Source: an uncultured Christensenella sp. (GTDB taxonomy: Bacteria > Bacillota > Clostridia > Christensenellales > UBA1242). Taken from it: a stretch of DNA of 64,000 bases. The position numbers and the translations under genes were made by a program. Where the stretch lies: NCBI GenBank assembly GCA_905195085.1, contig CAJJUK010000002.1, positions 19,569 through 83,568 on the forward strand, read 5' to 3'. The notes under the pieces were generated by a model, which was not told the origin of the DNA, searched no databases, and saw only the letters and a program-made list of their open reading frames with translations. Below, in pieces: positions 18,589 through 64,000 of this stretch. Each line of letters opens with the position of its first letter. Within the stretch, counting starts at the first letter, position 1.

Positions 18589-18609
18589 TTTGTAAACATG
18601 GGAGAGAAT

Positions 18610-22783: not shown

Positions 22784-22825
22784 ACAAAAACTTTTGTTTT
22801 TTGTTTTTATAATAAAAACTTTTGT
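22784..22825. promoter_or_regulatory. Twin operator-like palindromes in the divergent glp intergenic region
   Basis: ACAAAA-AC-TTTTGT (22784-22797, perfect 6+6 inverted repeat) and ATAAAA-AC-TTTTGT (22812-22825), 28 nt apart. The second starts at the end of a TATAAT box (22808-22813). Confidence 0.4.
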
Positions 22826-22885
22826 GCTAAAATTAAAGCAGAAGAGCAAAAGATTGTAGGCTGTCAAATTTATTTGGAGATGTCT

Positions 22886-28161: not shown

Positions 28162-28195
28162 CAAAAAAAGAGAGCTGATTAAGCTCTCTTTTTTT
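28162..28195 (-). terminator. Rho-independent terminator of the giant gene
   Basis: Immediately after the TAG stop (28196-28198). Stem AGAGAGC (28169-28175) / GCTCTCT (28183-28189), loop tgattaa, flanked by A- and T-runs. Confidence 0.7.
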
Positions 28196-31100
28196 CTATT
28201 GTTTACTCATAATCTTCTGTTTTTCTTTACGTCTTCTTCTGATAATCAACAAGATGATTATTATCAAAATCAGCAGGATTAACAATCCAATTATGATGTA
28301 AATCCACCACATGCTTGTTTCTTGTTCTTCCCAAACTGCATACAAGTTCAGGTCGTTATCAAAATCAACTGTGATTTCTGCACCGTCGAAGTAAACAATA
28401 TCTCCATTTTCACTCAATGCCCAACCAAGGAACTTCATGTTGCCATTCTTGAATGTGTTTTCTCTCAATCGAATTGTTGAGTTGTAGTAAGCCTGCATCT
28501 CAATAACTTCACTTGTTCCGTTGTTTGGATTGAATCTGATTGTGATTTGTTTTGTGATTGCGACTGCTTTCAAAGTAAAGTCCTCGCCTCTCACGTCAAA
28601 CAGATATCCACGAGATTGATTTGAATTGTTTTCAGGTGTCTTGTTGTCGTTCAAAACCCAACCATACAATTCATATCCAGGTTCAAGTTCAACACTCAAA
28701 CTCAATCTCTTTGTGTATTTAGATTGATATGTGTAAACCATACCGGCTGGATCATATCCTATAAGTTCAAGATCATCAGAACTGTTGTAACCTTCAACAG
28801 TAACTGACTTGATTCCGCTTGAATATGAAACTGTGAATGTCACAGATTTAAGGTTGTAGTAAAGTTGAACAACAGTTGAACCGTCACCAATGATTGTGTA
28901 TCCACTGTCACCGTTTCCATTATGAGAATATTCAAAACCATCTTCTGATTTGAGCAAGCTTTCAATGTCAATAACACTTTCTGTCACACCTGTGAATTCT
29001 TCTGAATACTTCATTTCATAGCCTTCATCAAGCACTTCAAAATAGTGTTCAACTTTGTAAGTTGCTTCTCCAACATCTGAAACAACAACAAGTTCAATGT
29101 CAACTTCTTTGTCAAGAATGAAAGTATATTCTTCTTCTTTGATTTGTTGTCCATCAATCAACCAGTGATCAAATTTATATCCAGGTTTTGCTGTCGCTGT
29201 GACAGTAACTTCAGAACCATAAGCATAAGAACCTTGTCCTGAAACTGAAGCGATTTGATCTTCGTCATAGTCAATTGAAACATTGATCATTTTTCTCATA
29301 TAGTAGAACTTGAACACTGTTGAACCATCGCCAGCAATGTAAGCAAAATCAGTTGCATCTTCGCCTGCGATTGTGACTGTGTAATAAGCATAGTCAAATC
29401 CAGTGAACACTCCGTCTTCATATCCTGGCAAGTCATCAACATTGTCAACAAAGTCAGTTTTGATTGTCTCAGGAGCAAAATATTGATGGGTTTTTCCTCT
29501 TCTTGTCACTTCAAATGCTTTCTCAAACACAGTTTGTGACGAGCCTTCAATCAATTGTTCTTTGTAGTATTCCAACTTATATTCTGTATTGTCATTTGCA
29601 ATGATTGTAATCTTGACTGTGATATCCTCTGTGCCCATCACATAGGTGAGTTTTGTTCCATCAACATTGTCAATTTGCAATTTGTTATTAACTTCAAATC
29701 CACCAAATGTGAAACCGCTTGAAATATCAAATGAGATTTCAATTGTTTGTCCGTAAGCAACACTGTAGGTGTTTCCTTCAATGATTGTTGCATCAACTCC
29801 ATTGACAAGAACTTTATATGATTCTGAAATCAAACCGTTCATTTCATCTTCAAATGTGACAGTCATCTTGAATGGAAGTCTGTCATAGTAGATGTAAACA
29901 ATTGTGCTTCCATCACCTGCGATAGCAACATCTCCATTGTCAACAGAACTGTAGTTAACCTTGAATCCAGCAACTTCAACAGAGCCAAATCCGATGTCAT
30001 CTCTCGTGAGAATATGATCTGTTTCTCCAGTCTTAGGAACACTTGGATAATTTGAGTCTTCTTCATAGTTTGCTCCAAGGTCGGTCGTCTGGAACATATA
30101 AACAACTGAGTAAGCAGTATCTTTGTTTGTTTCAGGCATAACTTTGAGAACGAAGTCTTTGCTTGGAATCTTCAAAACAACTGTGTAATCCTTTGTTCCG
30201 AGAGAATTGCCAAGTTCTGTCACATCAAATTCAACATCTTCAATAGGTTGACCTTCATCATCAACAATGGCAAATCCTGCATCTTTATCCAAAGAATAGC
30301 CTTTGTTCAATGTAAACTTAAGGATAACTTCTTCTTCAAACAGATATCTTCCATCGGTTGCTTCTGTTGTGATTGCTTTTTCGTTTTCAACACTCAAGTC
30401 AACATAGTAATAATTTCTTGTGTAATAAAGTTTAACGATTGTAGAGCCATCACCAGCAATGGTATTTCCGTTTTCAAATGATGTCATTGAATATGTGAAG
30501 CCATTGAAATCATAAGATTCATTTCCTTCAACCAAAGTCTTGACAGCATCTTCATCAATCTCGGTTCCTGTTTCTCCAGTTGAATAGGTTATATATGTTG
30601 GAGTTTCATCATATCCAAGTTCAAGATTTTGCTTGAACACTTGAATTGTGTATCTTGTATCCTTGTTTGCAACAGCAACAGTGTTAACTGTGATGTCTCC
30701 AGCAAGTTGTTCTCCATCTTTTTGACCTTTCATGTAGAGAGAAACTCCGTCAGATTCCAAAGCTGCTCCCTCAACTGATGCCAACAAGTCAATTTCAAAG
30801 TAACCATTTCCATAGCCCGCAGCTTCTTGCAAACTCATTGTCACTTTGTCTTCGTACTTGACATTGTAAATCACAAAATCTTCAGCATTTGTATCAATTG
30901 AATGAGAACCAGTTGAAGTTTCGATTGAAACTGATTCAATGTTTTCACCCTTATTGATTGTGAGTTTGTATGATTGTCTTGCATAGTAAACCAAAACCAT
31001 TGATGTTCCATTTCCAGAAATCACTTGACTGTCTTCTGCGTGAGCAGTGTCATATGCAAAACCTGTGATGTTTTCATATTCTGTTCCAACAATGAATTCG

Positions 31101-34100
31101 TCATAAGCGATACGGCTTGTCACTGTGCTTTCTGTTTCGATTTGATTGTCACTTATGTCAACATAGTTACCTTCTGTTGCGCCATAGTTGCCATTAAGTG
31201 TTTCAAGAAGAATTCTGATCTTGAATGTTGTCATGCCTTTGCCCCAAATTGCATAAAGCACAACTTCTTTATCTTCAACAAGTGTAAGATTTGAAACAGA
31301 TGGAGTGTCGCTTATTCCGCAACGAATTTCTTGTCTTTCACCTTCATCGTCCAAATAATACCAACCAGCGAATTCATAACCAGCATTGACCCAACCAAGA
31401 GTGTTGAATGCAGGCAATGCGTATTCTTTTCCATATTCCATCTCGCCAAGATCTTTTGTTATGTCGCCATCTTCTTCCATTGAGAGTGTCACTGTGTATT
31501 TCAATGGTTCCCAATAAGCGTAGACTACAATTTCATTGTTTGCAACAGTGTCTCCAGCAAGATTGAATGCGTAATACTTACCTTCGCTTGTTACATAGTA
31601 AATTCCAGCACTTTGAATTTCGTCTTTGTTTGTAACTTCAATTGTTGTGTTTTCTTCAACAGAAGTTGACCAACCCACGAATGAGAATCCTTTCTTTGTG
31701 AAATCTGAATGATCATCCAACTCGACAAGTTCATCATAAGAAACTTCTTTATCTTCAATGGTTCCTTCTCCACCATTGTTGTTGTATTTGATTGTATATT
31801 TGTTTGCTTCCCAAACGCCATACAAATCAAGGCCTTCTGTTCTGTCATAAACCGCAATAGTGTCATTGAGTTCGTAAACCACTTCTTCACTTTCTGCACT
31901 TGTTGCCCAACCCAAAAGTGTGTAACCAGTTTCAACAAACATTTCTGCAAGTTTAACATTTTCTTCCAAATATGTCACATATTGAGTTGTTGTGTCTTCA
32001 CCCTTCAAATTCTTATGGTATGTGATGACATAGGTCTCATTTTCAATTTCAACCTTGATGTTGAGTGCATATTCAGGCATTGTATATGAAATGTAACCCT
32101 GTTCATCAGCATCTTCTGATGTGTAAACTCTGTACAAGTCATCAGCAGTGATTGTGATTTGTTTGAATGTGTAACCAGCAACAGTTGCAACCTTAATCTT
32201 GAAGTTTGCTGTGTATTGAACAGAAACTGAAGAACCATTTGAAACATTGGCTGTCTTGTCTTCGCCATCTGTTGAATTGTAGATGAATTCAACATTGTCA
32301 ATTCCAACAAAGACTTCTCCATCTTCATTTGTCATGTCAAACACAACATTGAATGATGCCAAGTTGTATTCAACATTAACAACTGTTGAACCGTCTCCAG
32401 CAATAACTGGTTCAGATTCTCTGATTCTGTTATATACATAACCTTCTCTTGTGATTTCAACTTGTGCAAAACCTTCTTGAACCATTTCATCAGTGATTGC
32501 TGAATTTGTATAGCCTTGAAGTTCGGCACTTCCAACCAAATCATAAGTTCCGTCAATCTTTTGAGCATAGTAGTTCACAGTGTATTTTGTGTCAGGATTT
32601 GCTTCCCAGTTTGCAACTGCTTCCAAATCTTTTACAAAGTTATATGTGAACAATTCTTCATCATTCAAAGTCAAAACTGTTTCATCATCAACTGTGATTG
32701 TCCAGTTCTTGAATGTGTATCCCTGAAGTTCAAACTTAACAGGTGTCAAGTTTGAAGATGTAAGATATGTGAATTCTTGAGTGTAAGTGTCTTTTTCTTG
32801 CATGTCTGATTCATCAACAAATGTTCCGCCATTACCCTTGAATGTGAGCGTGTATGTCTTTGGTGTTGTCAAAACATTGATGCTGATGTCAGAGATTGGC
32901 ATCTCAAACTCGCCACTTGTAACATCAGTTCCAGTCAAACTCTCTTCTTCGTAACCAGCAAAATCATATCCTGCGTTGAGAGTGTAATCAAGTGTCACTG
33001 TTGCACCATGTTTAACTTTTGCAGTAAACACTGAAGTTCCCAAGTTTTCTTCTCTGATGTAGTCAGATTCAGCAGTGATTACAGAGATACCTGCATCGAA
33101 GTTAACTGTCATTGTGTACCAAACTCTTGTGTAGTAAACTTTCAAAACAAGAGCATCGTCTGGCAAAATGTTTCCACTGAGAACATTGTTTTCATTGTCG
33201 GCATCAAACTCATAACCAAGTTTTTCAATTTCTTCATATTCAACAAAATCATCAGTTTTTCCTGTGTATGTCTTTGTCAAACTTGAATCAATTTCAAATT
33301 GTCCGTCAAGAGTTTCGAAATAATACTCAATTGTATAGTCATTGTCTTCTGCTGACCAAACTGCCCAAAGTTCAACATTTTCATAGAAGTTGAATGCTGG
33401 GAATTCCAAATCATTCAGATCTTCAAATTCATATTGAAGAACTTGTGCTTCAGCATTTTCTTTAGAGTTTGCCCAACCAAGGAATTCATATCCTGGTTTG
33501 CTCCATGTCAATGTGTTTGCATGCTTAATTGTGTAAGCAGTGTTATAAACAACATATTCACTTGTCTTTTCTTCATCTTCATCATTAAGGTTTCTGTGAT
33601 AGATGATTTGATATGTGTTTGCAGAAGATGATGTTGTGATTGTGATGTTGTATGCTGGCATCTTGTCAACAACATACATTTCTTTTTCTTCATCATAAAC
33701 AAGTCCCAAAACTTTTGTGTCACCATAATAATATCCATCTTCGCCTGCAGTCAATGTCCACTTTGTTCCTTCGCCGAGGCTTACAGAACCTTGAGTATAT
33801 TCTGCTTCAACGGTGAATGATTTGAATGAATATCCATTGAACATTTCAAGATTGATATCAAATGGAGTTTCAAAGTAAACTTGATAATCTCCTTCAATTG
33901 CTGTGATTGAATCTTCAATTGTTTCAACAGGAGTGAATGTTCTGACTCCTTCAGATGAAACCATTGTAAGTTTGTAAGGAAGTCTTGCATATTTGATGTA
34001 GATTGTTGTTGTATAGCCTTCTTCTGTGTCGTTGCCATATTTGATTGTAACAGTTTCACTTCCGTCTTGATCTTCAAATGCTGAATATACAAAACCTTCA

Positions 34101-61100: not shown

Positions 61101-64000
61101 GCAGTAAACCAACCGTTGAAAGAATATCCATTTCTGCTTGCAACTGGAGCAATGGTATCTGAAGAACTCTGTCCTGCATAAATATCTTTGCTGTCATATT
61201 TGATGTAAATTTTGTTGTCTGTCAAACTTGGTGTTATGGTTGCAGATGTTGATCCATTGCCACTGTTAACATCATTGACATTCAAAGTTACTTCAATCTT
61301 ATTTGCGGTCCAAGTCGCAACATAAGTTCTATTTCCCAAACTTTGTGTTGGAATGGTTGAAGCCTTTTCACTAGCTGTGATAACACAATTTCTTTCATCG
61401 CTGCTTGCACCAGCATAGAACAATATGTAAACCACGCAATTTTCTGTTGCAGTATAAGTTGAAGAACTGCTCAAATTTCCCAAATAATTTCCTGAGAAGT
61501 CAAAGATTCTCCATCTCACATTTGCATTTCCACCAGTGATTGTGTATGTCACACCAGCCTTCAAACTTATTGCTTCAGAATAGATTGAATTTGGATATGA
61601 TGAATCAGGTCCAAATACACCTGTGTTCAAACCGATAAATCCATTATACCAATTCTTGATTGTGAATGTTTCTGTCCAACCTGCAAATGAATATCCAGAT
61701 CTTGAAACATTTGAAGCCGTAGGTAAAGTTATTGCACTTGATGTGTAAGTGTAACTTGTTGGTGCGGTATAACTTGAAGCCCAAGCACCATTATTAAGAT
61801 TATAAGAAATTGTAAATTGTTTTGGTGTCCAAGCTGCGGTCAAAACCACATTTCCGTATTTGCCATTTGACACCGAGGAACCTTGTTCAATTGCTGTAGT
61901 TCCCCAATTTCCAGTGCCATTTGGAGTCCAGCTTGTAAGATCATAACCGATTCTTATTACATGATCAACACCTTTCAATTCAATATTGTCATGAATTGTG
62001 TATTGTTGAGTCGATGTCGAACCATTAATCCATGTTCCAGTTTGTCCCGTAGGGAATGTATATGTGATTGTGTAAGTTGAATAATTGTAGTCAAGTTCAA
62101 TAACCAAAGAACCATCACCACGAACAGTAAATTGTTGAACATTGCTTCCCGAAGGTGTTGAACTTCCACCAATGTAATATCTGTTTGTTGCATATTGATA
62201 TCCATTGATTGTTCCAACCATTTCTCTGATTTCATCAAGAGTCAAAACTGTGTCAGTTGGAGCTTTAGCCTGAACTGCAGTGGTTGCATTCGTGTATGAA
62301 CCATCTTTATTTTGAGTTCTGTATTGAACTTTGTAATCAACTTCGACAGCATTTGAATGTGAAGCCACATAGTAAACACTTGAAGGTGACAAATATCCAT
62401 TATCAGTTGGTCCAAACAAACTGTAGTCAAAAGTGAACGTATAAGTTGCTGTTCCATTTTCAGAGTCAATGCTACCAACTTGAGCAGTTGGATTTTGGCT
62501 TGTTCCAGCTGTCCAATTTTGGATTGTATAACCAGTTTTTGGAGCGGCAGTTACTGTCACACTTGTTCCATAGGCAATTTGAATTGTTCCATTTGCTTGG
62601 ATTTGTCCACTTTGTCCCGAAATGGAAATACTGTCAACACCAGTTCCAACAGTGTAGTTCAAAGTGTATGTATTAACAGTCCATTGAGCATATAATGTCA
62701 CTCTAGTGTTTGCATTTTTCCAAATACCACCAGTTTCCAACCAACCACTGATATCTCTATCTTTAACAACAGAACCATCTGCATTAAAGATTTTTTCTCC
62801 TTTTCCATTTTCTGCAGCGGTATAGAAACCATTAAATGTGTAACCAGTTCTCCAAGCAACTGCATTTGTGATTTCGCTTGGTTGAGTATCAAGTTTTTTG
62901 ATATTTTCAGGAACATTGTCATACTGTGCAGTATGTGATGTCGGACCATAACCCCCACCATTCATATCAAAATTAATCGTGATTTGAGATGTGTTTGCAG
63001 TCCAAACGGATTCCAAGGTCACATGACCATATTCAGAATGTCCTTCAGCCAGAGAATATCCTCCAGCAATGTAACCATCGACATTGGCAGCGTTGGTCCA
63101 AAGTGTAGATGCTCCGGTTGAATTTGTTGCTCTCCATCTAAGAGAATATCCTGTCTTATTGATTTGACTTCCAACATTATATAATGTAACAGCATTGCCG
63201 ATTTGATATGTTTGAGTGTTTGAAACTCCATTAAAGGTTGCTCCATCAGTCAAAACATATGTGATTATAAATGTTGCTTTCTCCCATTGTGCATAAATTG
63301 TTGTTGTCGTTGAAATTGCCCAATTGTTAATCAACGCACCTGCTGCAGAAATGTATTGAGTTCCACCAGATGTTGCTGAGAACCAACCAAGGAAATTATA
63401 ACCATTTCTTCTTGCTCTAGGAATTGCTGTCGCACTTCCTGTTGCACTTGTATAAATGTTTTTGGAACCATATTCAATCCAAACTGTATTGTTTGTAATT
63501 GTGTTAGAGTCAGAATAAATTTCTCCGTTTTCAGCTGAAAGAACAACTTCCACCCTGTTTGCTGTCCAAATTGCATACAAAGTTGTATTTCCGGCTGTTG
63601 TATAGGTGTATTCAGTTGAAGCTTTTTGATATGCACCAGCAAGTGAAGTTTGGCTTGTGCTCCAACCTGCAAATGTATAACCAGTTCTGCTGAATGTGTT
63701 GTTTGGAGCAGTTGTAAACACCGCATCATAGGTTACATTTTGAGTTGTTGTAGTTGCCGTTCCATAGTTTGAATTATAAGTAATAACATATGGATTTGCT
63801 GTCCAAATTGCATACAAAGTTGTGCTTCCTGCTGTTGTGTAAGTATATTCAGTTGAAGCTTTTTGATATCCACCAGCAAGTGAAGTTTTGCTTGTACTCC
63901 AGCCTGCAAAGGTATAGCCAGTTCTTGTGAAGGTGTTGCTTGCTTTTGTTGTGAACCTAGCATTGAAGTTTATATTAACAGTTTGGTCAGCACCCGTTCC
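28196..64000 (-). CDS. Giant modular repeat surface protein (>=11,934 aa; 5' end outside the window): InlB-B/Listeria-Bacteroides repeats, divergent InlB-B repeats and MucBP-like modules, with a C-terminal transmembrane tail anchor
   Basis: - Frame: one frame is open for 35,805 nt. The track start at 63817 is a TTG inside a repeat.
- 5' edge: I translated 63818-64000 by hand and it stays open, continuing the repeat (GTGADQTVNINFNARFTTKASNTFTRTGYTFAGWSTSKTSLAGGYQKASTEYTYTTAGSTTLYAIWTAN).
- Other frames: all five are broken into ORFs of 197 aa or less.
- Repeat signature: dozens of copies of ...R.GY.F.GW.........LYA.W.
- C-terminus: ETSMWWIYIIIGLLILLILIIIILLIIRRRRKEKQKIMSKQ.
- A terminator follows the stop. 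Confidence 0.95.
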   Translation of the reverse strand, partial: GTGADQTVNINFNARFTTKASNTFTRTGYTFAGWSTSKTSLAGGYQKASTEYTYTTAGSTTLYAIWTANPYVITYNSNYGTATTTTQNVTYDAVFTTAPNNTFSRTGYTFAGWSTSQTSLAGAYQKASTEYTYTTAGNTTLYAIWTANRVEVVLSAENGEIYSDSNTITNNTVWIEYGSKNIYTSATGSATAIPRARRNGYNFLGWFSATSGGTQYISAAGALINNWAISTTTTIYAQWEKATFIITYVLTDGATFNGVSNTQTYQIGNAVTLYNVGSQINKTGYSLRWRATNSTGASTLWTNAANVDGYIAGGYSLAEGHSEYGHVTLESVWTANTSQITINFDMNGGGYGPTSHTAQYDNVPENIKKLDTQPSEITNAVAWRTGYTFNGFYTAAENGKGEKIFNADGSVVKDRDISGWLETGGIWKNANTRVTLYAQWTVNTYTLNYTVGTGVDSISISGQSGQIQANGTIQIAYGTSVTVTAAPKTGYTIQNWTAGTSQNPTAQVGSIDSENGTATYTFTFDYSLFGPTDNGYLSPSSVYYVASHSNAVEVDYKVQYRTQNKDGSYTNATTAVQAKAPTDTVLTLDEIREMVGTINGYQYATNRYYIGGSSTPSGSNVQQFTVRGDGSLVIELDYNYSTYTITYTFPTGQTGTWINGSTSTQQYTIHDNIELKGVDHVIRIGYDLTSWTPNGTGNWGTTAIEQGSSVSNGKYGNVVLTAAWTPKQFTISYNLNNGAWASSYTAPTSYTYTSSAITLPTASNVSRSGYSFAGWTETFTIKNWYNGFIGLNTGVFGPDSSYPNSIYSEAISLKAGVTYTITGGNANVRWRIFDFSGNYLGNLSSSSTYTATENCVVYILFYAGASSDERNCVITASEKASTIPTQSLGNRTYVATWTANKIEVTLNVNDVNSGNGSTSATITPSLTDNKIYIKYDSKDIYAGQSSSDTIAPVASRNGYSFNGWFTAAKDGTKVINADGTLISNWTTATATTLYAQWTANKYTITLNGNGGTITSLTAGNNVTVSVANSQLTATFDQTGTFTAGVKRTGYTFKGWFNSDGSQITGLTNGAISGNNGTFSSTNNSVLNLANSGNIDIYAIWEADYVEVTLNVNKGTGSTTPTVSHTTLYVKYGTNYSEAIYDKANSSTSKIGLVNASRDGYSFSGWFTDATSGTQITNESVVGTGVVYEDGTYKITLYAHWTARQFTVTYFKNFDDTTTNQADTLKATFDQTYTVLGINNGLFNFDVTGWTFQYWATSSTGGTIYNPGDMTYTINGNLNLYAIRQANSYTVTYDPNDSNYQGTAVLKDGMSKVAEYYYNQAVDISSRYDRAGYAFASWNTKADGTGTTITSSNNTGLVANDGGSITLYAIWTAGSVDYTVYHYTQTIDAAKNGRTEFSVSDMSNYTLTGSAETKQGISGSTISEDTINSYYKTLTGFTKSSTVVTNVAGNSLVVQADGSLRVYLLYTRDAYSMTVEMQTGIASVSATAKDTQTNGTRTLSGSTSGKNVTFSGIFFGETVTVSAGLLAGYTNPSFAVISPEGLAFSSNSFGMPASNVSLSVVATPGQVTYKINVYLMDTNGNYPEDSAPSEVITNGLSGLINTEITISSTVYTKAGFSFDNNKTTAEDMTKVLTAEYRDGQVVGTTVFKLYYSRNQYTLTIKPNGGQYDSSSEDTQITRYFEETYTVNNPDRAGYTFSGWTLTGGFGNLSGTTFTFGAGNSVLTANWNANTVEVTLNLNYDSSTKSQPSFVETDGTIYITYDSKNIYAARTGDAYPYAPEGDVIAPKAQRNGYDFLGWFTDETDGTMVINSNGVLENNWTTSNLDGQVLYAHWDIIDYTITYVNDGGTLDPSAVTTYTIESGDSLPNITRSGYSFMNWKATDVEGNWVLNTEYPAQKNLGGMYGDVTLNALWQANVYEVKLNANQGTGTSDVTITPSNGLVYIAYADTSFYTGRTASTFPNEISGSKISPVASRDGYNFNGWWTVASGGVQVISNAGALIANVSGWTDASGNWIATSDSELFAQWTAKDNIVVTFDSNITTSYARDNVSISPSSKVVAFNGTYGELATATRIGYTFGGWFKEAGCINEVTSSTQVVNSSNHTLYAKWTANTQTVTYTTQNVTVGENSTKSVASHSANVTATFTANTGYSLPSTIIVKVGNSVIDSGYTYTRTNENKSATLTINSGYINENVEIIITGVAGVNTVTFDLENITYTGSDSATSGVAYSAYLHRVYGYDLPNSISVTINGQAANVNTDYTYVVDTDKQNATINIFADKVVGNIVITASATPKTPTVTFDANGGTVGTASKTVTFAETYGTLPTPTKAGYNFAGWYTEKLADNASVSGKTKIEETTSVTREENHTLYAYWTAKTVQVHIANFSGGAYEGSVMGSDTGEYTATYKTGDVITLSYSPKMNGANALYSFSKWVLGTEWGSTTLSDGVYAISEADTDAGITIEIRACYLVTGTATAVTEGKSGDASGGTVRVYEGDTSEATTSYSWGYTGPTQTTQIFADAKEGYRFDGWFTNSSCSGDAISTNAQYEYAFGSTGHFNLYAKFTAVDYTIDYVLNGGAWTTGFNPTTSYKTTQSVTLPVAANLTKTGYTFAGWYESETLDDDVVTSIPVGSLGNKTFYADWSANTYTISLDSNGATVPGTSSVQAIYETTTGFTITNPQKTGATFEGWTTAQNAGVVVVGVDGKLIAGIEGYTTADGKWQNASANVVLYAKWSTNSYGLNFTIDSDQIEKITINGTDYTQSGTANIVYGSEVSITVTTKTGYVIDKMTGGTTSAPTSGVGTIAGDKFSATYNFTFNYTASANGEVAYYIVVTSRVLRYTIAFNNNTGVGTMDNLEMDYFTDKALTTNTFTKTGYSFLGWNRTSGASTVEFTDGQLIEDALTTADGSTVTLYAIWSADTNTITYNLTNLSENADAPKTVITYANDVNFTITPDAGYNLPTTITVVVGTTTLVVDDGYTYSSTTGAVTIKKDFINGNIVITASGVAKQLTVTLDANGGNVSLATMIVTFANTYGTIPTPTRTGYTFAGWWTDATAGTQVTSSTTVTNPDNHTLFAHWTANIYTITLDTNGGNMLDGVAQTVYVQYDSNKIYMTNTNGVLSNEVAPRAERQGYQFAGWGAGATQVITETGALKVGVSGYTDENGNWIYTDNLQLTAQWTANPDTPYIVNHYQEKIGISNPSTTNSIHWDLKDTDNLVGTTDSEVTPYVKTYTGFTSPTTQTVVVKADGSTVVNYYYTRNQYYIDTNLKLTTYGALNGYSSNFSAFSITVTITDEDGTEIFTATGGDIYRLVDYGATVTYSNLVVANGYEYKGYSTNLDALTPDSTEYPYNPFVKTENSDRLYIFLESVEYQISYELGNGGVNGSGNPTSYETTFAGEQTFTLSNPTRTGYTFAGWDVVSWTDGTHSDTLPTIEQTTVDSETKNTLTIPANTYGNITLTAKWTANDITINLNQNGATTEGTLSVVAKYEETTSFTITNPQKVGHTFLGWTTEMNGGTLVINTDGSLVSDVAGYTSGGKWARAEETTLYASWRAHTYTIVFNGNGSTSGTMTDLSMTYGVAKNLTKNAFVKTGYSFLGWAESAGGEVVYADEAQVINLTETDGATINLHAVWGADANTPYTVTIYQANTTGAYEATATLTDPRTGTSDSRITFATSNTSITINGKKYEYTGFSYDATRSSIDNDTVMTISADGTTNIAIYFSRNQYTLTINTNGGTYAGTSTTIRQYYQTTYQVLDVSREGFDFGGWTFNGVGSFDEESKIYTFGAGNDTLTAEWDILSYTLTLTKDKGFESVTATGTGVSGGTDGVYTVVYGTSVTITYKLYGGFNFKGYESVGETQVTVSDNAFTMPAGNVGIQVTSNENDYIIRFNLNGGTGSTQTVDLNAKYDTPINLTTIETLGWSRDGYAFGGWGLSPQSTDAAYTDGQSVSRLAESGVFNLYAIWGANQYQITFNGNNSTSGTMDPIDVTFNTEVTLTANAFVRTGYTFLGWSENSDATSADYVDGAKFTYSKAGNMELFAVWSENSYTLTLDANDANYQGSAELIAGKSKTQTLKYTAAADLGEIYTRTGYTFAGWAYDAEAASPDFLATDKPTGLVETDGGSITLYAVWTSSDVTYKVIYYGQTVDAARNDLTDFTVENRNNFTIIDSETKTGKTGTNAVYDFKSIDGFTSMGTMLTNSGSNSIIILADGSLEVYLLYTRNSNDVSVEIGAGIVSVDISYSTREDGNSFTSNDTVEVFFGEVLTVTVVTKAGYATNAVITLTGATETSTNPTVFTMPNQAVTVEVYAEPNTNTPYTVYHYRENLAGGFDLFETENLTGTTDTTATATVKDYTNYQHDSNVEGTLLSGNIAGDGSLELFVYYKLETYELTLTADERINGVKATGVGVSLKEGNVYTIKVTASVELSYTSIQTGYSFARWEVEDDIVTVSNNTFIMPASNLTINGVSEAVGFQVIYNGNNGFVNGAETYNQKVIFNEPTNILEASTATRTGYTFDRWNTKADGTGEDYVAGADYTHTTTSNLVLYAIWTANKYDVIYNSNNGQSQSKTDADGATYDSEYTFLDNTAENGMGWTKEGHTFLGWSTSDSATSAEYTVGSKINYTIDGDLTLYAVWKANTYNIIYNANTIASNQTALYGNVEGSTASTPAVYGQEVTVAENGFSITGYTFLGWDENPNATTPTYTAENNKFVYQVAGNTTLYAIWQAQTFEIQVQEDGATVDTLSVVYGNDYTSGKLITDVSKYSKTGYNLTGFFTTANGGTMLFDNSGVLQNNATAASIITDNGIWAYANDLVVHANYSPKAYTVNFDVITTKPSDGSDITISETSKTVYYAQTFGQDGFWPTPSLAGYYFDGWSTSDMYRALSLEQYLDLDGATPEEDIGEEYIFERGEGSDAVKYVYVERNEDNTPSTTLVLVETVQNSFVDANDVVWDIGDEGLTLYATWIGRTDISYTVYYYLEELSYDASAPDFADYQKDENGATADDKYPEVPTKVNYNGVTYLQVRAETHNNALIADKVENYIYKYDYTGFSYKYYEYNGDTIQAEEQEGVSVGITKIYAFYTRQTYTLTLATSKGVDSVEATGTGVSGGADGVYTVKYQAEVTLKANLKPGYAFNSWVNQEGYTSVEVVDNKFTMPDTTLGVYLTATATAQNVNYYVEYYQQNIADDNYTIFGSRQTQTGTTDTLVDISNYSNTTYEGFAYDHYTVGITTSDDEELNGSLNINGEGNLVIRLYYTRNSYSVVLSANKGIANVSLDATGTVTNTENTYSVRYGDTVTLSATTKSGYTFANWTKDAGSANVIISNETSSTGATFTMAAGTVMLTANATADSDTAYQVNYYVQKTDLSFVLDSAFDEYLIATNTAGKTGTTDTLAPIDTLSAVNYVGMQYSYYTVVSTSNGNTGADSKPVTNGNLNIDGDDSLVINLYYVRETYKLTLNTSVGVAIATAIVGPGISKADEANTYDVMYNVTVQLAHTLTSNGYSFTGWVDSAENSKVSVSDAQTFTMPTRAVVLTATANANAYTITLKGNGGQTSSSQTEIDVPVTFDSDVTLPANTFEKAGYTFLGWSKTDDGEVAYADEATFKYDIVGDMELFAVWGENTYTIVYNANKGSGTMSNTVATYDEPVQLTANSFVRTGYTFVGWSTDANATEFENVENATTKGIYFDGTNYSAYNLTEEGEITIYAIWQENTYTLTLDGNDGSGYQGSAVLIEGKSATQVLKYETENADLTSIYTREGYEFVSWNTEADGTGVTYLATDTPNKLATGVAGDNAVTLYAIWNATEVEYKVNVYEQKIDAASDEFNTDNFTLVANNTYEALTGSSVTVNDYVTVRTGFEYAGFTTNKANAVVVINDGSLEINLWYTRNAYTLTVNSVAGDNGVAGVTGSAIYDFGKQVTITATINVGYTFAGFASSNPSLFGNVSAEQCTVQGNVYSYTFTMPAGNFTLTASTTKNADTAFNIVYLFESLDGEFVEDAELSADFGKVGHGQTESIITRAMIEEANKGEDEETGSIPTVKGFEYSNFGVLNEEDGTYNVVTIKGDGSSVVYVYYARMSYTFTINYYYVDTTTPITSEFSMTLKHEESHTETSPVITGYTADRDSVSCTIDGADVVENVYYTAIEYTLTYDANGGEVSSDSQKFTIENDVTLLQPTKTGFTFSHWEVTKVADETSFKMGDEFTTMINKGAYGDVTLTAQWKAETNSITYRLTNAVLVSGPENDEIASGTDFEAKISANVGYSLPGSITVVVGDRTLEADEYTYTQTTGVISISGEFIVGDVEITVVATANSYKATINSTNTTVSIDNLSFETSVETTVSTGTTLTIYAKANTGYGATGIAFTVTGGTATISSVSEENGVYSVVVSDYTDEFTIMATATINSYTLTINPAEGIYEGSSEVITITQNYNSTLTISNPTRTGYVFDGWSLSATAGGEAFGTLQDGLYRFGAGNDTLVATWHADKFMVTIDLNDVTVGNGTTAASTIVANAEVVNGKIVLYAVYNGTYETLYNADDEVVTFADFTSETLTRAGYTFAGFFDKAIMIGESTEGATQITSATGFATANNDTVIYAYWTKNSNTKYTVNHYLEKVGIETPDTANPDHWELAEDGTEVFTDGTTDENVTPAVKSYDGFTSPSTQTVTVKADGSTVVNYYYTRNQYALDIKGLFNSYSEDTLSDTTGLNTFNITIEGVGEVTGVNDRNLMVDFGATITINNLTLYAGYDYAGYSIEGGTTLAESDVTTFAEITFDMYSENIVVVLNFTGKAFDVNYELDGGENDDSNILVYYTSINEKTFTIASPSKSGYSFQGWTVGWTDDVHSSTLPTLNTGVLTISVDTYGSITLTAQWKANEYTITLDQNSATTEGTKSVVATYDSPTLGSSIDNPERTGHTFLGWTTGLNTGDVVIGTDGTLQAGVEGYTDESGNWILASGTTLYASWKVHEYTIRFNANTGTGDMDDLAMTYGVAKDLPANTFVKPGFTFQGWTRTQGSSNVDFADKANVIDLTTEDGVVVDLYAVWTANTNTGYKVEIYQQTTAGGDNYQLLDTMSRIDGTTDEALAISSTSTSVTINDVTYAFDGFRYNAGKFATNKTDNSTVVVADGSLVVQVYFDRIPYTLTIDKQEGVTSVKVNDVEFTTGEFLYGASIKIDVTVSEGYAWGNFAVSGTEPTGFDASALSQTVTMGLGNATLTAQATIRSFTLTIDPAGGLYGDSADEFEVIQNYGSTYAVLSPTREGYTFTGWSKSADFKGNLEENENGSVYTFGAGNDTLTATWKVNRYKVTLDLNDVVAGNGTTAATSSVGTVNNGKVELYVTYGTNYSEMFINASETESETAYSIDDITIAREGYTFNGFYTARNLLGTESVTGEKIAADTAFATANNETVLYAYWTANENTAYKVYHRQVNVGVYDNFTDENSTLIDTDTLSGATDSVVTPATKTYTGFRAPALQQLTITADGNASITYYYAREEYALTLEAGTGVAAATASGTGLIEQEPDEDAVNAKAYLVQYGANITLTATSNTGYSMTGFTGYAVDNLEITEENTKATAMLTMPSTTVQLVATASANRYVVKLNVNAGADEVVSENVDAPVVDGIITLYGEYNGTYGTLYTADGTAVTLESLGLQREGHSFEGWFTTPIEADESTADATEILATTKFDLTAESEIFAYWTINSYTLTVEYVYSEESVEGIAGTKAFEDQSITVKFGAEAYIDSPVLYGYTADQTRVGFANMPASNETITVVYTANPYTISYVEDGGTISGVAGTDYTTNYTKEVDINLPSIIKVGYTFAGWKVTTDFGGDLTLGNWKQNDIYTENTVSAGMYGNVTLTATWTENTNTGYKVNIYKQTTAGRDNYEKTEVTRNDGTTDSPVNVGKSGTGVTINDVTYAPDGFTYEEEKTTSNNTVEGEFIVKADGTLEINVYFSRNQYTLTINKQEGVTSVKVNDNEFTTGQFYFEESIKIEVTVSSGYTWGNFAVSGTEPTGFDASELSQTVTMGLGNATLTAQATIRTFTLTIDPAGGLYNGSADLFEVTQNYASTYAVLTPSREGYTFTGWSKSADFHGNLVETDTGYTYTYGVGDDTLTAQWQARRYAVNFNLNDVNFNNGSTTATFDVTTNEDVALKDLINKGVLTLYATYDSDYSILYTSQTGTDYVEFANLLSVTRDGYDFVKFSSNLDGTDEILSSEMCDTTTATTVYAIWTPKTFTLTVDKNLEQLDIIVLGATPVEGIANQYTVVFDTRVRLTASVYAGYHFSNWTVEDEIESTVETFDYKYETAGDVTIRANVEANQYTIHYDPNGGEGMIASESVAYGEDVNLSNGEGFSREGYTLTGWSYDDTSYALGASVRNLTDVDNGEVTMKAVWTPNDYVVTFETNLGSAVENLPAVYDQAVEIVGTTNRAGYNFVGWSTTNGTSADFESVADIGEYENLTAYLIGEGKEGGIYLFEGKYYVFNLTSEDNGEVVVYAIWSVGAAQYKVEYYLENVDNDEYTLDSTRSKFIDSVTGTEVEIEQLTIEGFEINLNHENTLLSGVVAGDSSLVLRLYYTREIYTVDFVTPRLGVKSVTGDGEYKFGATVSVSVEVSDGYVLDQITYGQDGVLTSEDLPYEFEIDSNMTFVVTVTALPFEYNIRYNFEKLDGTGYETDPDVADAILSANVDTEITYDMISEKLVEFDGFTYDRMETGITVKPENNTTIVNVYYSRNSYTLTLQTTKGISSLTAEKDDFYVVEITEDVPENEKQYSVRYGAEVRLIYDIRDGFEFESWSSAYVTGDEETGFVIAEMPDENLTIYINATTMQVDFTVHYHLEKMSSSGGSDFENDYVYDSQYDETKQGYTDEEIESVDNLNLREIPGFTYSTFASGVIINGDGSTVLDVYYLRNSIDVNVSMTEGIAKVVATVSEEDGAYAFTKEFTSAGTFSVKYGAKVILTYELTKVNDETGYSFAGWTGGVQEDAGTYYIIADTTDFNISATATNNPYIITFYGNGGQYIKVVTEGTEDTDAVTETITEITQDVVYNRSVVLTKNIFTREGYIFQGWSTDPEGEVEYTDEQEFVYSIIGDLELYAVWTPIKYNVEYNSNGGDGVMTGHTDIVYDQEFDLNENQFTFTGYTFNGWTYEADDTTIKTISKDTTKAKNLTATNGKTVTLYAVWLENQYTLTYNSNYSSVTSDVTDKTSDPETYGYTADILIKDASATGLEFAVTGYKFVGWSRSADGSGILLRAGDTVNRLTTDVDGSVVLYAVWTPITYSIAFANNGGSGEMATMEGVNYDTEVKLTKSTFTKTGYDFAGWTYQDDAGTNHDLADEETVKNLTATDGKVVVLTAKWTATEYTITYLPNDGTFDSSLQLEDDGTYKTTFTIEDDIVLIAGDMLTKVGHTLIGYSFSEISGNWAEKVDGDIALSTLTDNTISKGVYGNVTLQAKWSTNRYTLTITYQYANGDEAYKTYTEEVLYGSEFTVASPDIEGYTPDQKEIKDTMDSVDGKTYHVIYNANVYDLTFNLNDAEGSSRASIEYTTVKVVYDSTYADAYVEVEGSDNLTVGLPTPTRQGYDFAGWYLTADLNDADLITEEMIVKITENTTLFAKWTAKTDTKFTVEYRFESLDGQTYELRTDLQESITSQGTTDTQITEEMIVALTGGAYPTIAGYKFEAVELATIAADGSTVVTVKYERDYFTLTLSVEDGVGEFTATTEEQSTEEGFYIRDNEDGTYSVRYEATVVLNHTISDNGYDFAGYVSDEIETITDNKFTMIAGDAEVTATTDPKPYTITFHGNGGMTADGLDVYTQSGAEVVYRAEVTLTANLFSNEGYTFRGWALSEEDADKRIYDYAEEATFVMTTYSENVDLYAVWRPIGYDLTLEGDAGIDISKAVVTVNGEKIVLEDKMLIDYDSTVRIYYTYTDEEGTSTVVKGGYDFAGFKVGESVVGTGEYYEFTFHGNTTVVLTSTPRNDTRFKVVYQTKDLVGTGYTDVDEKLVENGTTDIAVNYGYLNGLGLINSYEGFVYSAFEDQDGSETVTIKYGNDTEEGYTTTIYIKYARLPYKLTMVSSEGVRTFTPVETIEDSITAIEGDYQVYFETPFDINLEMFNGYSFKSFTVEAEYTQGSVSLGEGTKWTLTAGEDGYYYGDTKVLGLVYDEEKEMYVVDKMPAYNITITTSSSANTYQIIYHRNLNDEDEEKTSEYVVYNTAYTIKHANTLTWSKPGYEFLGWANSKENAEAQVLQYEFEDLNDLEFPAFNFYENVELWAVWSAEDNDYTIEYYFETLDGQFEIDSSLTKTYTGKTDDFVEYEEIEKLGYEFDADNENNVLSGNILPDDALVLKVYYTRVWYTMTVNFDAGISVITAESDYIREENLGTSVFTAKVKHGATVTLDYTLNAGYDFAGYEEESLTGTDVTSGEFEMPISDISINVLTTPKTYTLTFKGNGGTFVDESDMQEKDTYTQEFTYLTSSNLTPVKFELQGYTFKNWTITVDDETVLTLNDEELFTYNFVKDLEAVANWEANPDTKYTVNYYAQKIDGTYDLVGSAELQGYTNSAITDEMVQEGFAQVEITREGYVYNRIRESEPVIAGDGSTVVNVEYNLASFNVVFDMTNEDGEVFVGIDNVEFIYNSTDGEDKTANVSNGSSVSVQYTANFKIKVATVAGYTFKQITITADDLYRVYTSEDADEQGYISYTMPEYALNIKVEIENETYVITYHKNLKGEDTTTQYVTYLEENVKLAEMFVETGYTLLGWATSAESEEVVYELNDTIAVYDRTEGLDLYGVWEANKYTIKYNNNGGEGTIEDKEVSYDELVELDDHSDFTKKGFSFVGWSTSVEENTTIEVTNKDEIQSAGIYYVTSEGKYYAFNLAGDTVANNEIVVYAYWEPLKYTVTLSMEEDGDITKDLGEMEYGKEYALPAFNTLGWVNAGYEFAGWYYLDDEGERQEIRCGISDTPSVSNLTLVEDKEVVLYAIWGKGMTTFKIRILLETLNGNYGATEGNYVDISDNQIETESTVTSRIAYDEFIVGTEYENITGFAYDTAHAEDSQVISGNGTSMVLVYYARQSYKLTINKGENIESVSIETSTGSHSIDTNAEDFVIYNVKYEDKVTMSLQEAAGYGNGYFEIDLLASVEGAALESDGVSLYMKGQKDGEQLAGDITVNTVAVANKDTRYTIQVFKQNLELGYDETPTYITYSTGETGTEIDEDAVKTLVEGNESYDFNGFTYSMTSFENGNTIAGDGSTIVKLYYTRNYYYVDLSVENEKAITTEATDGRYLFEEEVILKFTLNKGYSLDKDAGFAIVDDEGQPIEDVEFDVTELGNSLGTKDYTVVLKIPSKDFVLKVMPETNKDTAYSVVYMFQTTDLGANYEEDSNYPSVPKTGETDHILTRDDIGFGSVEVAGFKVNYSSVDNGDVAIAGDGSTIVYIYYDRLPFKMTVTFEDEMNGLISESYKVLVNGVDATIIEGNTYSVAYGQTIEISFDISSGFTFGGFEVNNKLQIDNVDGTKLTYVMGTEDITVKITIIANDNTEYKLEYYKEQLIEGSSQTVFEKAFEVTRRGKTHQYFAPETIKTDFVDNVDDLPGYEDGVFTGFDYAYYTVTIAGEDATDFAYIAGDGSTVFKFYYMRKMINVSIDYDEDQIASVSGQGSYAYGSEVTVTATAKPGYKFDHWLIDGQQIKEEEYTFILDKEVDIELVVVSDVGEATYKVEHYFEVLDEGYEMKYSEEFTGVTESVIDIESLLKSEDGFEYSHNGNGDSGYTIIGDGSTVVQLYYNLKSVTFTVSYSSGIKSVTVEGYNSSDDLELIGYDPAGMVYTYQSKYTKRLSLSVELEPGYELYGWVLNDNKTPENNSNQSRGYLFDVRGEDFTLKAVAITKQITIRFNPNNGTSEVIEMQAYYNSTIRLRENTFKNGNMKFLGWALSENGDIVYFDGAEITVDFDNDLNLYAVWEEQETSMWWIYIIIGLLILLILIIIILLIIRRRRKEKQKIMSKQ
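28241..28309 (-). other. C-terminal transmembrane anchor of the giant protein (followed by the basic tail at 28199-28240)
   Basis: WWIYIIIGLLILLILIIIILLII (23 hydrophobic residues), then RRRRKEKQKIMSKQ. No LPXTG-like motif in the preceding residues (…DNDLNLYAVWEEQETSM). Confidence 0.85.
28550..31235 (-). repeat. Membrane-proximal stalk: five consecutive pairs of M-type (~95 aa) and D-type (divergent InlB-B, ~85 aa) modules
   Basis: Hand parse from MTTFKIRILLETLNG... to ...FTLKAVAITK. The order is strictly alternating M-D-M-D-M-D-M-D-M-D, then one canonical repeat and the TM helix. Confidence 0.65.
40032..40149 (-). repeat. Near-identical 118-nt island, copy B (partner at 42456-42573)
   Basis: 116 of 118 nt are identical to 42456-42573 by hand alignment. 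The offset is 2,424 nt (808 codons, in frame). It lies inside ~0.8 kb paralogous module sets (39760-40565 and 42181-42990) whose flanks are clearly more diverged. Confidence 0.9.
42456..42573 (-). repeat. Near-identical 118-nt island, copy A (partner at 40032-40149)
   Basis: See the partner feature. Both copies encode ...GNFAVSGTEPTGFDAS(A/E)LSQTVTMGLGNATLTAQATIR. Confidence 0.9.
61345..61675 (-). other. Single-copy ~105-aa non-repeat insertion inside one Listeria-Bacteroides repeat of the giant protein
   Basis: A repeat that starts normally (…SRSGYSFAGW) is interrupted by TETFTIKNWYNGFIGLNTGVFGPDSSYPNSIYSEAISLKAGVTYTITGGNANVRWRIFDFSGNYLGNLSSSSTYTATENCVVYILFYAGASSDERNCVITASEK. It then resumes (…STIPTQSLGNRTYVATWTAN). 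I found no second copy in the visible protein. Confidence 0.7.
63561..64000 (-). repeat. Tandem 237-bp (79-codon) coding repeats at the 5'-most visible part of the giant gene
   Basis: The string gctgtccaaattgcatacaaagttgt recurs at 63561 and 63798 (period 237 nt). The first ~140 nt of the two units are roughly 90% identical by hand alignment. Confidence 0.8.

Follow-up and report, generated by a model that had tools for sequence, protein, structure and literature searches.

The window, that is, the whole 64,000-nucleotide stretch of DNA that was analyzed, is dominated by the 3' part of one giant gene on the minus strand, which takes up 35,805 of the 64,000 bases (56%, the share given in the first-pass annotation). 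As also recognized at the outset, the encoded protein ends in a predicted transmembrane helix with a basic tail, and the gene is followed by a clean terminator:

28196..64000, minus strand: 3' part of the giant coding sequence (35.8 kb; 11,934 codons plus the stop; open-frame translation)
28163..28195, minus strand: intrinsic terminator hairpin immediately downstream of the stop codon (stem of 14 pairs, loop of 5, A and T runs)
28199..28240, minus strand: basic tail RRRRKEKQKIMSKQ, read as cytoplasmic (aa 11921-11934; identical in six strains)
28241..28309, minus strand: single C-terminal transmembrane helix of 23 residues, WWIYIIIGLLILLILIIIILLII (aa 11898-11920)

On the minus strand, no stop interrupts the 11,934 codons between the window edge at position 64000 and the TAG at 28196-28198. 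The mechanical ORF list begins at a TTG at position 63817 (11,873 aa), but the same frame stays open up to the window edge, in agreement with the initial view that this TTG is not the end of the frame and that the N-terminus of this continuous ORF lies outside the window. The other five frames consist of short pieces, as noted previously, with the trivial difference that the longest open stretch within 28196-64000 is 201 aa rather than 197 aa. Hairpin sites of the terminator type are rare in shuffled sequence (0.1 expected), and because the terminator is palindromic, with runs of both A and T, it could act in both directions.

The full length of the protein was taken from gene calls located beside an identical neighbor gene, which is present in 89 contig blocks; the calls in six assemblies are 14,096, 14,102, 14,100, 14,065, 14,099 and 14,102 aa long. 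Thus, ~2,130-2,140 aa are encoded upstream of the window, the in-window part extends from residue ~2,132 or ~2,143 to the end, and ~6.4 kb at the 5' end lie past the window edge. The window carries the 3' 85% of a 42-kb gene, with a product of ~14,100 aa and ~1.5 MDa. Bacterial proteins of more than 10,000 aa are rare, and almost none have been studied. A homology search for the full-length protein yielded a 698-aa fragment along with unrelated Flg_new proteins, and the giant itself was absent from the matches.

This ORF is a real, conserved gene, neither an artefact nor a pseudogene. The gene is repetitive and metagenome assemblies are the source of all the data, so that a collapsed or chimeric assembly of repeats, or else a decaying pseudogene that is open by chance, has to be considered, and the first-pass annotation had accordingly called for a check on mis-assembly and a comparison of gene lengths among related genomes. 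The outcome leaves virtually no room for either explanation. The six assemblies are independent and their calls fall within 37 aa of each other. The gene lacks long near-identical DNA repeats, the best internal ones being 84% identical over 76 nt, 80% over 206 nt and 77% over 300 nt, and the identity among paralogous modules has a median of 31% and a maximum of 69%. No frame breaks were found between strains, and the 3,280 aa compared showed nothing but substitutions and single-codon indels; between the window and an NCBI MAG contig (CAYCYJ010000007.1), 2 nt out of 9,843 are different. At 38% G+C, a run of 11,934 stop-free codons is beyond chance, and the other frames stay short. Finally, the dN/dS values over more than 6,000 codons, namely 0.10 in the comparison with ortholog L007 (dS 0.28), 0.14 with L003 and 0.16 with L009 (dS 0.94), indicate purifying selection, and the orthologs in three species are colinear and syntenic. 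A metagenome scan with the C-terminus found no contig beyond one already known.

The orthologs come from three species representatives, with 92%, 75% and 55% identity, and share the upstream genes ZupT, NrdD, NrdG and dut. L007 and the window protein are colinear, with residue numbers shifted by 2,142 aa. Gains and losses of blocks were observed only between species and not between strains. The near-identical tandem repeats with strain-dependent copy number that define periscope proteins are not seen here, given the low identity among modules and the narrow range of strain lengths (14,065-14,102 aa). The block that differs between species and the latest internal duplication map as follows:

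53624..56074, minus strand: block of ~816 aa and ~9 modules (aa 2643-3459) present here and in L007 and absent from the more distant L009, whose offset drops from 2107 to 1291 at this point
39713..43006, minus strand: latest internal duplication (aa 6999-7288 versus aa 7807-8096, 66-69% identical, offset of 808 aa or 2,424 nt)

The start of the gene, which lies outside the window, is accessible through the N-termini of the three orthologs. A promoter (TTGACT-17-TATAAT) upstream of the gene is kept in all three species, as are a ribosome-binding site and a start that begins with MDRLKRKFGFYIMASIFMLSSAFGFGMM. The N-terminus consists of a basic n-region and a hydrophobic core, which by eye resemble a Sec-type signal peptide. 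The first-pass annotation, which had proposed an upstream search for the start and a signal peptide, stated that nothing in the window explains export; this is true of the window itself, and the conserved signal peptide of the orthologs provides part of the answer.

The first 30 residues are unusually well conserved for a cleaved signal peptide (27 of the 30 are invariant across the three species), so that this segment could remain in place as a second anchor. On that reading, the protein would be tethered at both ends through an uncleaved N-terminal segment, forming a giant loop, or it would be cut after export into released pieces. The textbook A-x-A cleavage site is indeed absent from the N-terminal segment of the orthologs; however, signal peptidase I could plausibly recognize the S-S-A at residues 20-22, with possible cleavage after residue 22. 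Furthermore, no protease or autoprocessing domain was matched in Pfam, either in the window protein or in the ortholog N-terminus, and no periodic cleavage motif was noticed. We therefore regard tethering at both ends or processing as quite improbable.

The putative signal peptide is followed in the orthologs by a non-repetitive head of ~200 aa that is 66-70% identical across species, and the Flg_new modules begin around residue 253. The head has no homolog beyond the orthologs and no Pfam or PDB match, and the AlphaFold model obtained for it from a single sequence (P0020) has a pLDDT of only 36, so any binding activity of this region is purely conjectural.

The remainder of the protein is an array of small modules. 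Competitive classification with class-specific profiles assigned 128 modules in the window, close to the ~130 originally parsed by hand, plus a few segments without a class, and 146 modules in the composite full-length protein. The in-window modules comprise 66 of class A (Flg_new), 30 of class B (Flg_new_2), 28 of class M and four of class C, a rare fourth type. The M modules, which make up about one quarter of the total and are not represented in Pfam, are directly followed by a B module in 24 of 28 cases. Iterated self-built HMMs had also been tried as the classifier but drifted until one profile covered nearly all modules, and they were replaced. The regions of the array that stand out are as follows:

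62324..64000, minus strand: distal end of the in-window array, built exclusively of A modules (aa 1-559; M modules appear from aa 560 onward)
61181..61666, minus strand: insert-bearing segment of ~160 aa (aa 779-940), with ~110 aa apparently located inside a loop of an A module
31778..32818, minus strand: A-M-B-A segment modelled with AlphaFold2 (aa 10395-10741; pLDDT 81, pTM 0.63)
28541..31207, minus strand: five consecutive membrane-proximal M-B di-modules (aa 10932-11820), the most acidic and least Thr-rich part of the protein

The insert-bearing segment holds two of the nine Cys residues of the in-window protein and is conserved in the orthologs; sequence searches of Pfam and PDB returned nothing for it.

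The repeat was originally identified as the Listeria-Bacteroides or InlB B-repeat, and the profile searches bear this out for two of the module classes but not for the array as a whole, which includes four classes rather than one family. In the three pieces into which the window protein was divided for the search, Pfam Flg_new (PF09479) matched 50 stretches (23+16+11; 488, 309 and 276 bits against a cutoff of 27; E = 4e-150, 5e-94 and 7e-84), and Flg_new_2 (PF18998) matched 12 stretches (26, 135 and 141 bits against a cutoff of 23.6; E down to 1e-41). TIGR02543, the NCBIfam name originally given for this repeat, is the correct one, although its sole match, in the ortholog N-terminus, is marginal at 20.0 bits, just below the cutoff of 20.95; NCBIfam gave no match on the C-terminal 1,100 aa. 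Alignments of the A and B modules match each other in hhalign (probability 92.5%, E = 4.8e-7), whereas the M modules reach a probability of only 11.7% against Flg_new and 1.6% against Flg_new_2. The third family proposed for checking, MucBP, was not found: neither MucBP (PF06458) nor Muc_B2 (PF17966) matched the three pieces of the window protein at E <= 0.01. An assignment of the M modules to MucBP was rejected as well, given that 27 copies scanned singly yielded no Pfam match at E <= 1, which leaves only a resemblance at the level of the fold. The sole PDB sequence match of an M module, to the designed propeller Tako8, was judged spurious. The M module is widespread, being present in 6,208 cluster representatives; in the relatives P0008 and P0019, a MucBP match comes straight after M, in the place taken here by Flg_new_2.

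Structure prediction for the modules, which the first-pass annotation had suggested, produced small beta-rich domains. In the model of the A-M-B-A segment, the M module has a beta-beta-alpha-beta-beta-beta topology, and the B and A modules are all-beta. Foldseek matched the model to tetra-ubiquitin (5b83), the Mub type-2 repeat (3i57), YwfG (7yl4), InlB (7nms), SdrD B domains and pilins; the match to InlB 36-392 (7nms) has E = 8.7e-4 and a probability of 1.00. The TM-scores are low because the query holds four domains. As modelled, the modules adopt a beta-grasp-like, tandem ubiquitin-like stalk fold.

The composition is as originally described, rich in Thr (14.4%, the highest), Gly (8.8%), Val (8.0%), Ala (7.5%), Ser (7.3%), Tyr (7.2%) and Asn (7.0%) and poor in Cys. 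The in-window part has a mass of 1.30 MDa and a pI of 4.2, with D+E climbing to 18% near the membrane, and contains 190 N-x-S/T sequons.

The last ~80 aa of the protein are 100% identical between strains. We read the C-terminal helix as a putative stop-transfer anchor in the membrane rather than a wall anchor. There is no LPXTG in the residues that precede the helix (...LNLYAVWEEQETSM) and no match to Gram_pos_anchor (PF00746), which is present in the related protein P0014; no SLH domain (PF00395) was matched in the window protein or in the ortholog N-terminus, whereas another M-module protein, P0039, has three. No sortase signal or other wall-binding module was found in the protein, and no genes for accessory secretion, sortase or glycosylation were found flanking the gene.

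Taken together, the protein is best interpreted as a fibrillar adhesin-like tether of ~150 beta-rich modules that is exported by Sec and anchored as a type I membrane protein, a reading to which we assign a probability of roughly 65%. Export would begin with the N-terminal Sec-type signal peptide, and the chain of ~150 modules would then be threaded out, each module folding in turn outside the cell. The C-terminal helix would stop the transfer, with the RRRRKEKQK tail staying in the cytoplasm, which is the topology of a type I membrane protein. The product would be an extended, sub-micrometre fibre with the conserved orphan head of ~200 aa at the far tip and the acidic M-B di-modules beside the membrane. 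Such a fibre would most likely serve as a fibrillar adhesin or tether, with host material, particles or partner cells as the possible targets. Features by which fibrillar adhesins are recognized are present, namely a stalk of tandem domains, an export signal (in the orthologs, by eye) and a cell-surface anchor in the form of the membrane helix. Distal to that anchor lies a conserved non-repeat head without a family or PDB match, a candidate for the adhesive domain. The anatomy fits the original proposal of a fibrillar adhesin or surface protein; the adhesive part of that proposal we infer from the architecture.

The surface coat that had been offered as an alternative deserves consideration in this context. 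An acidic, Thr-rich brush of fibres could protect against phage, predators or host factors, or keep neighbors at a set distance, with no specific ligand. The low overall pI, the acidity of the membrane-proximal part and the lack of a recognizable adhesive domain are compatible with such a role, and the Thr, Ser and Asn residues together with the numerous sequons could bear glycans. However, no glycosyltransferase genes are adjacent, and the S-layer (SLH) modules of some other M-module proteins are missing. Moreover, the head is the best conserved part of the protein between species (66-70% identity compared to 53-58% for the next stretch in L009), which fits a specific function at the tip. A non-specific coat or spacer thus appears rather unlikely, and a tether with a dedicated tip is the reading that we prefer.

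Although remarkable in size, the protein is a very large example of a kind already described and not a new kind of system. Other giant bacterial adhesins, such as Ebh (~10,000 aa), SiiE (5,559 aa) and MpIBP (~1.5 MDa), string large numbers of small tandem domains into a very long rod, which places the binding region at a great distance from the cell. The domain families of these proteins are unrelated to those described here, and secretion and anchoring differ as well: SiiE and MpIBP use type I secretion, and the repeats of all three are often far more alike than the 31% median in this case.

Closer counterparts can be found among proteins with related modules. The InlB B-repeat of Listeria monocytogenes (7nms), the founding Flg_new structure, matches by both sequence family and structure; InlB has a single repeat beside the LRR receptor-binding domain and GW anchoring modules, compared to ~110 copies here if Flg_new_2 is included. 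The Mub/MucBP proteins of lactobacilli (3i57) and YwfG (7yl4) similarly consist of tandem ubiquitin-like beta-grasp domains in two-domain repeat units (Foldseek probability 0.99), but the protein analyzed here has neither a Pfam MucBP or Muc_B2 match nor LPXTG. Flg_new is among the stalk domains listed for fibrillar adhesins (Monzon and Bateman, bioRxiv 10.1101/2021.12.07.471604), with which our protein shares the N-terminal signal, the distal non-repeat region, the long stalk of small domains and the C-terminal anchor. It differs in being far longer than the modelled example of 1,500 residues (bioRxiv 10.1101/2021.12.07.471604), in having a membrane helix in place of LPXTG, and in carrying an orphan tip without a known adhesive family.

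Predicted proteins of 10,000-30,000 aa with Listeria-Bacteroides repeats have been mentioned in passing in gut Clostridia, where the repeat was called propeller-forming and a role in binding other cells was proposed (West-Roberts et al. 2023, bioRxiv 10.1101/2023.11.21.568195). The organism class, the gut metagenome habitat (mammalian and animal), the size range, the dominant Pfam repeat and the proposed role are the same as in the present case; here, however, each module is modelled as a stalk domain of its own with a beta-grasp-like fold, and the full anatomy is described, from the putative signal peptide and the orphan head through the four classes of modules to the predicted membrane anchor. 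The giant genes of Omnitrophota, for which cell-cell interaction was proposed, encode many transmembrane regions, divergent SecA DEAD domains and mixed enzymatic domains (bioRxiv 10.1101/2023.11.21.568195). The extreme length and the proposed cell-cell role are shared with these proteins, but our protein combines a single C-terminal helix with one hydrophobic segment at the N-terminus, and Pfam finds only Flg_new and Flg_new_2.

The host is an uncultured gut Clostridia bacterium, with Candidatus Caccovivens (Christensenellales, family UBA1242) as the closest named relative. Genomes of UBA1242 are mostly smaller than 1 Mb, so that, if membership in this family is true, ~4% of the genome would be spent on one 42-kb gene. 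The lineage is probably related to the genome-reduced gut Christensenellales that are thought to depend on other cells (PMC12306168), and the target of the fibre could therefore reveal whom these bacteria live on. We tentatively suggest a scenario, doubtful at present, in which a genome-reduced, putatively partner-dependent UBA1242 cell is tethered by the fibre to a partner microbe or the host, the head represents a new adhesive family, and M, as the partner of Flg_new_2, defines a new family of stalk modules. The gene is unusually well supported, with many assemblies, orthologs in three species and purifying selection, and offers a good test case for the production, export and use of a 1.5-MDa fibre in a monoderm gut bacterium. 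It also provides two leads, the orphan tip domain and the widespread stalk module M that has no Pfam entry. An Rfam scan of the window and of the ortholog leader gave nothing beyond a tRNA and a microRNA match attributed to chance; the 5' leader is conserved and structured, and might aid transcription through the 42 kb of the gene.

The minus-strand frame of the giant gene runs without a stop through 11,934 codons, from position 64000 down to the TAG at 28196-28198 (translation of the window), as stated in the first-pass annotation, and the other five frames between 28196 and 64000 are indeed chopped up, with open stretches of at most 201 aa. The TTG at 63817, where the mechanical ORF list starts the gene, is merely the first start-like codon and was correctly dismissed as the true start because the frame stays open to 64000 and exits the window. 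The in-window part of the protein (1.30 MDa, pI 4.2) shows the anticipated composition, with 14.4% Thr, abundant Gly, Val, Ala, Ser, Tyr and Asn, and 9 Cys. The membrane helix, basic tail and clean terminator that had been described at its end are also present:

C-terminus of the giant protein, minus strand (translation): 23-residue hydrophobic helix, then RRRRKEKQKIMSKQ
28163-28195: strong palindromic hairpin with T runs, directly 3' of the giant-gene stop codon
26887-28038: downstream neighbour gene, 383 aa, present with identical sequence in 89 public contig blocks

The gene adjoining the 383-aa neighbour is called at 14,096, 14,102, 14,100, 14,065, 14,099 and 14,102 aa in six independent assemblies, which bears out the claim of one real giant gene and gives a length range across strains of 14,065-14,102 aa. 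Only 2 nt in the last 9,843 nt separate the window from the NCBI MAG contig CAYCYJ010000007.1 (GCA_964320195.1), the one with the 14,065-aa call; the window therefore represents this genome or a near-identical strain. In the remaining strains, the last 3,280 residues are 95-96% identical to the window protein, differ by substitutions and single-codon indels only, and contain no stop codons. The best DNA repeats within the gene are 84% identical over 76 nt, 80% over 206 nt and 77% over 300 nt, and paralogous protein stretches show a median identity of 31% (66-69% over ~290 aa for the single best pair); given this divergence, collapse in short-read assembly is not expected. Mis-assembly is ruled out by the six agreeing assemblies and the lack of long similar repeats. 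The Nei-Gojobori method gave the following dN/dS values for the window against a strain contig (L003) and two species-level orthologs (L007, L009):

L007, 3,000 codons: dN/dS 0.10, dS 0.28
L003, 3,280 codons: dN/dS 0.14, dS 0.13
L009, one 500-codon block: dN/dS 0.16, dS 0.94

Against L007, the ratio is 0.08-0.13 across all 500-codon windows. These values indicate purifying selection that is steady along the gene and, together with the absence of stops among strains, rule out a pseudogene.

When one genome was scanned for each species, three orthologs were found, L007 (92% identity), L008 (75%) and L009 (55%; isolate UMGS1447), all labeled as uncultured Clostridia or Clostridiales. A ZupT-like transporter is encoded upstream in all three, accompanied in L009 by NrdD, NrdG and dUTPase. 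The orthologs are colinear with the window, with L007 residue 2,143 corresponding to window residue 1, and in 3/3 the frame remains open beyond the window edge for a further ~2,100-2,170 aa, up to an ATG beginning MDRLKRKFGFYIMASIFMLSSAFGFGMM... that is preceded by a conserved AAGGAG ribosome-binding site (3/3 species). This N-terminus, with a basic n-region, a hydrophobic core and a possible S-S-A cleavage site, was read by eye as a putative Sec-type signal peptide; the orthologs supply the start that was to be sought upstream. The signal sequence is followed by a head without repeats (residue ~50 to ~250) that shows 66-70% identity between species and includes the invariant blocks NVSADVYFENVIFEM and AWDFE.KWGY. 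No homologs of the head were found outside the orthologs, and it has no match in Pfam, NCBIfam or PDB sequences. Flg_new-like sequence begins at ~residue 253. A promoter (TTGACT-17-TATAAT) and a leader of ~165 nt are conserved in the three species:

L007:3584-3778, upstream of the giant gene and outside the window: near-consensus promoter (11/12) and 5' leader, 83% mean column identity

The leader, which has no Rfam match, could be a candidate regulatory or read-through element for the 42-kb transcript. Among the three sequences, a 10-bp leader hairpin (UCUCUCAAAU/AUUUGAGAGA) is retained through G-U changes and an outer helix shows one compensatory pair; the folding z-score is -1.9.

The Pfam scan of the window protein detected Flg_new in 50 stretches, in agreement with the earlier assignment of the recurring GY.F.GW/LYA.W unit to the Listeria-Bacteroides / InlB B-repeat, and Flg_new_2 in 12, and nothing else; of the families previously suggested, MucBP was not matched by sequence. 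Competing class-specific profiles made from the giant protein itself assigned 128 modules in the window, consistent with the manual estimate of roughly 130:

Class A, 66 in the window: Flg_new, ..R.GY.F.GW...LYA.W..
Class B, 30 in the window: Flg_new_2-like
Class M, 28 in the window (28823-62323), also found in proteins P0036-P0185 from our searches: Y.V.YY...G.TD...GF.Y...I.gDGS.vv.vYY.R..Y.lT
Class C, 4 in the window: GY.LP..I.V.VG...GYTY...I.G.I.I.A

A composite of the L007 N-terminus and the window (14,076 aa) contains 146 modules, with 1,087 aa outside them, 302 of which are the signal peptide and head. Classes A and B are homologous (hhalign probability 92.5%); a relation of M to A or B is not demonstrable by hhalign (11.7% and 1.6%), none of 27 M copies matches Pfam at E <= 1, and there is no credible match among PDB sequences. 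A B module directly follows 24 of the 28 M modules. The module order is polar, with 36 A, 3 M and 2 B in the first third of the composite and 21 A, 14 M and 16 B in the last; the protein ends with five M-B pairs and one A module before the membrane helix. In parallel with this change from Flg_new-only modules to M-B pairs, D+E rises toward the membrane from 6% to 18% and Thr falls from 16-17% to 9-11%. The main rival to an adhesin or tether role, a non-specific acidic coat, appears unlikely to us. One Flg_new module appears to carry an insertion:

61181-61666, minus strand (aa 779-940): ~110 aa apparently inserted in a loop of the module

This segment, conserved in the orthologs, carries 2 of the 9 Cys, has no match among PDB sequences or in the whole-protein Pfam scan, and may be a small extra binding domain.

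The profile of M, searched against 1.84 billion proteins, retrieved 6,208 cluster representatives at E <= 0.001 (2,163 at E <= 1e-10); the best 150 of the 6,208 reach 6,801 aa at most, with a median of ~2,440 aa. In the matches examined, M recurs every 136-150 aa next to Flg_new and Flg_new_2, sometimes with SLH, VWA, DUF7507 or an LPXTG anchor. Two relatives (P0008 and P0019) have a Pfam MucBP match directly after M, the place of Flg_new_2 in the giant protein. M may represent a new domain family, with Flg_new_2 or MucBP as its partner.

Structure prediction of module types, as proposed earlier, was carried out with AlphaFold2 for an A-M-B-A segment (aa 10395-10741), the input alignment consisting of paralogous modules from the window itself (mean pLDDT 81, pTM 0.63; M and B modules mostly 80-94). 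In the model, M has a strand-strand-helix-strand order, which is typical of beta-grasp domains. Foldseek matches in the PDB include linear tetra-ubiquitin (5b83), SdrD B domains, YwfG (7yl4), Ruminococcus gnavus IbpA (7kpj), the Mub type-2 repeat (3i57), InlB (7nms) and Gram-positive pilins, with low TM-scores because four domains were compared together. At the level of fold class only, the matches support a stalk that is a chain of ubiquitin-like or Ig-like domains. From position and fold, and not from sequence homology, we infer that M-B pairs correspond to the two-domain Mub repeat.

The length of the protein is stable within the species, with blocks gained or lost between species: L008 carries an extra ~167 residues around window aa 1707, and ~816 residues (aa 2643-3459) are missing from L009. 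Old segmental duplications have offsets of ~808 aa and ~3,400 aa. The array is diverged and slowly remodelled rather than a homogenised, strain-variable "periscope" repeat.

We propose that the N-terminal signal would start Sec-dependent export and the modules would fold one by one outside the cell; low identity of neighbouring modules would limit misfolding, as in multidomain proteins generally. The C-terminal helix would then halt transfer, the basic tail remaining intracellular, and the product would be a fibre anchored in the membrane as a type I protein and tipped by the conserved head. Such domains measure ~3-4.5 nm each, and by a rough estimate an extended fibre of ~150 modules would reach ~0.4-0.7 micrometre. 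Translating one molecule at 15-20 residues per second would take, roughly, over ten minutes. We assign a probability of about 0.65 to the giant protein being a putative fibrillar adhesin or tether exported and anchored in this manner. The nearest literature description is a passing remark on genes of the class Clostridia in mammalian gut metagenomes, whose products of 10,000-30,000 aa contain Listeria-Bacteroides repeats and might attach to host or prey surfaces (bioRxiv 10.1101/2023.11.21.568195); the giant protein fits that kind. Flg_new has previously been treated as a stalk domain in fibrillar adhesins (bioRxiv 10.1101/2021.12.07.471604). Tests for membership among LPXTG, MucBP (by sequence), periscope, SLH and Omnitrophota-type giants were negative. 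Newly described here are the anatomy as set out above, including the orphan head, an M module that is absent from Pfam, the rule by which M pairs, the polarity in composition and the conservation evidence. The protein is notable for its size and the quality of the evidence; its category will not surprise a specialist.

The flanks in the window are housekeeping genes (UvrC, SufBD, glycerate kinase, thymidylate kinase, and glycerol kinase with a glycerol-3-phosphate dehydrogenase-like set), and no sortase, accessory Sec or glycosyltransferase genes were found adjacent to the giant gene. UvrC shares 79% identity with a protein assigned by name to Candidatus Caccovivens sp.; Caccovivens is GTDB UBA11517, Christensenellales, family UBA1242 (PMC8035907), a family described as having genomes mostly <1 Mb and as likely to depend on other cells (PMC12306168). 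This one marker gene suggests that the host organism belongs to UBA1242. Other features of the window are:

22772-24340, plus: FGGY kinase, facing the next three genes, in a glycerol-use cluster (19734-24340)
21306-22733, minus: DAO/BFD-type oxidoreductase, same cluster
20090-21313, minus: Pyr_redox_2 protein, same cluster
19734-20093, minus: DUF1667 gene, same cluster
12354-16431, minus: polysaccharide pyruvyl transferase, FrhB/FdhB-like iron-sulfur protein, ABC-2 permease and ABC ATPase
4128-4204, plus: tRNA-Arg (ACG); no other RNA gene was found in the window

Together, the three minus-strand genes of the cluster look like an anaerobic glycerol-3-phosphate dehydrogenase set; in strain L002 the kinase has a 484-aa call in place of 522 aa. 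The four-gene run may modify or export surface polysaccharide. A GNAT acetyltransferase (174 aa, 18598-19122, plus) is present in the window and the near-identical MAG contig and absent from the called genes at that position in four other strain contigs (L001, L002, L003, L005), and is a small insertion that varies between strains. Finally, a 413-aa ORF (6774-8015, plus) may encode another surface protein; its leucine-rich-repeat and MAG6410-family transglutaminase-related lipoprotein matches are weak and fall well short of the family cutoff.
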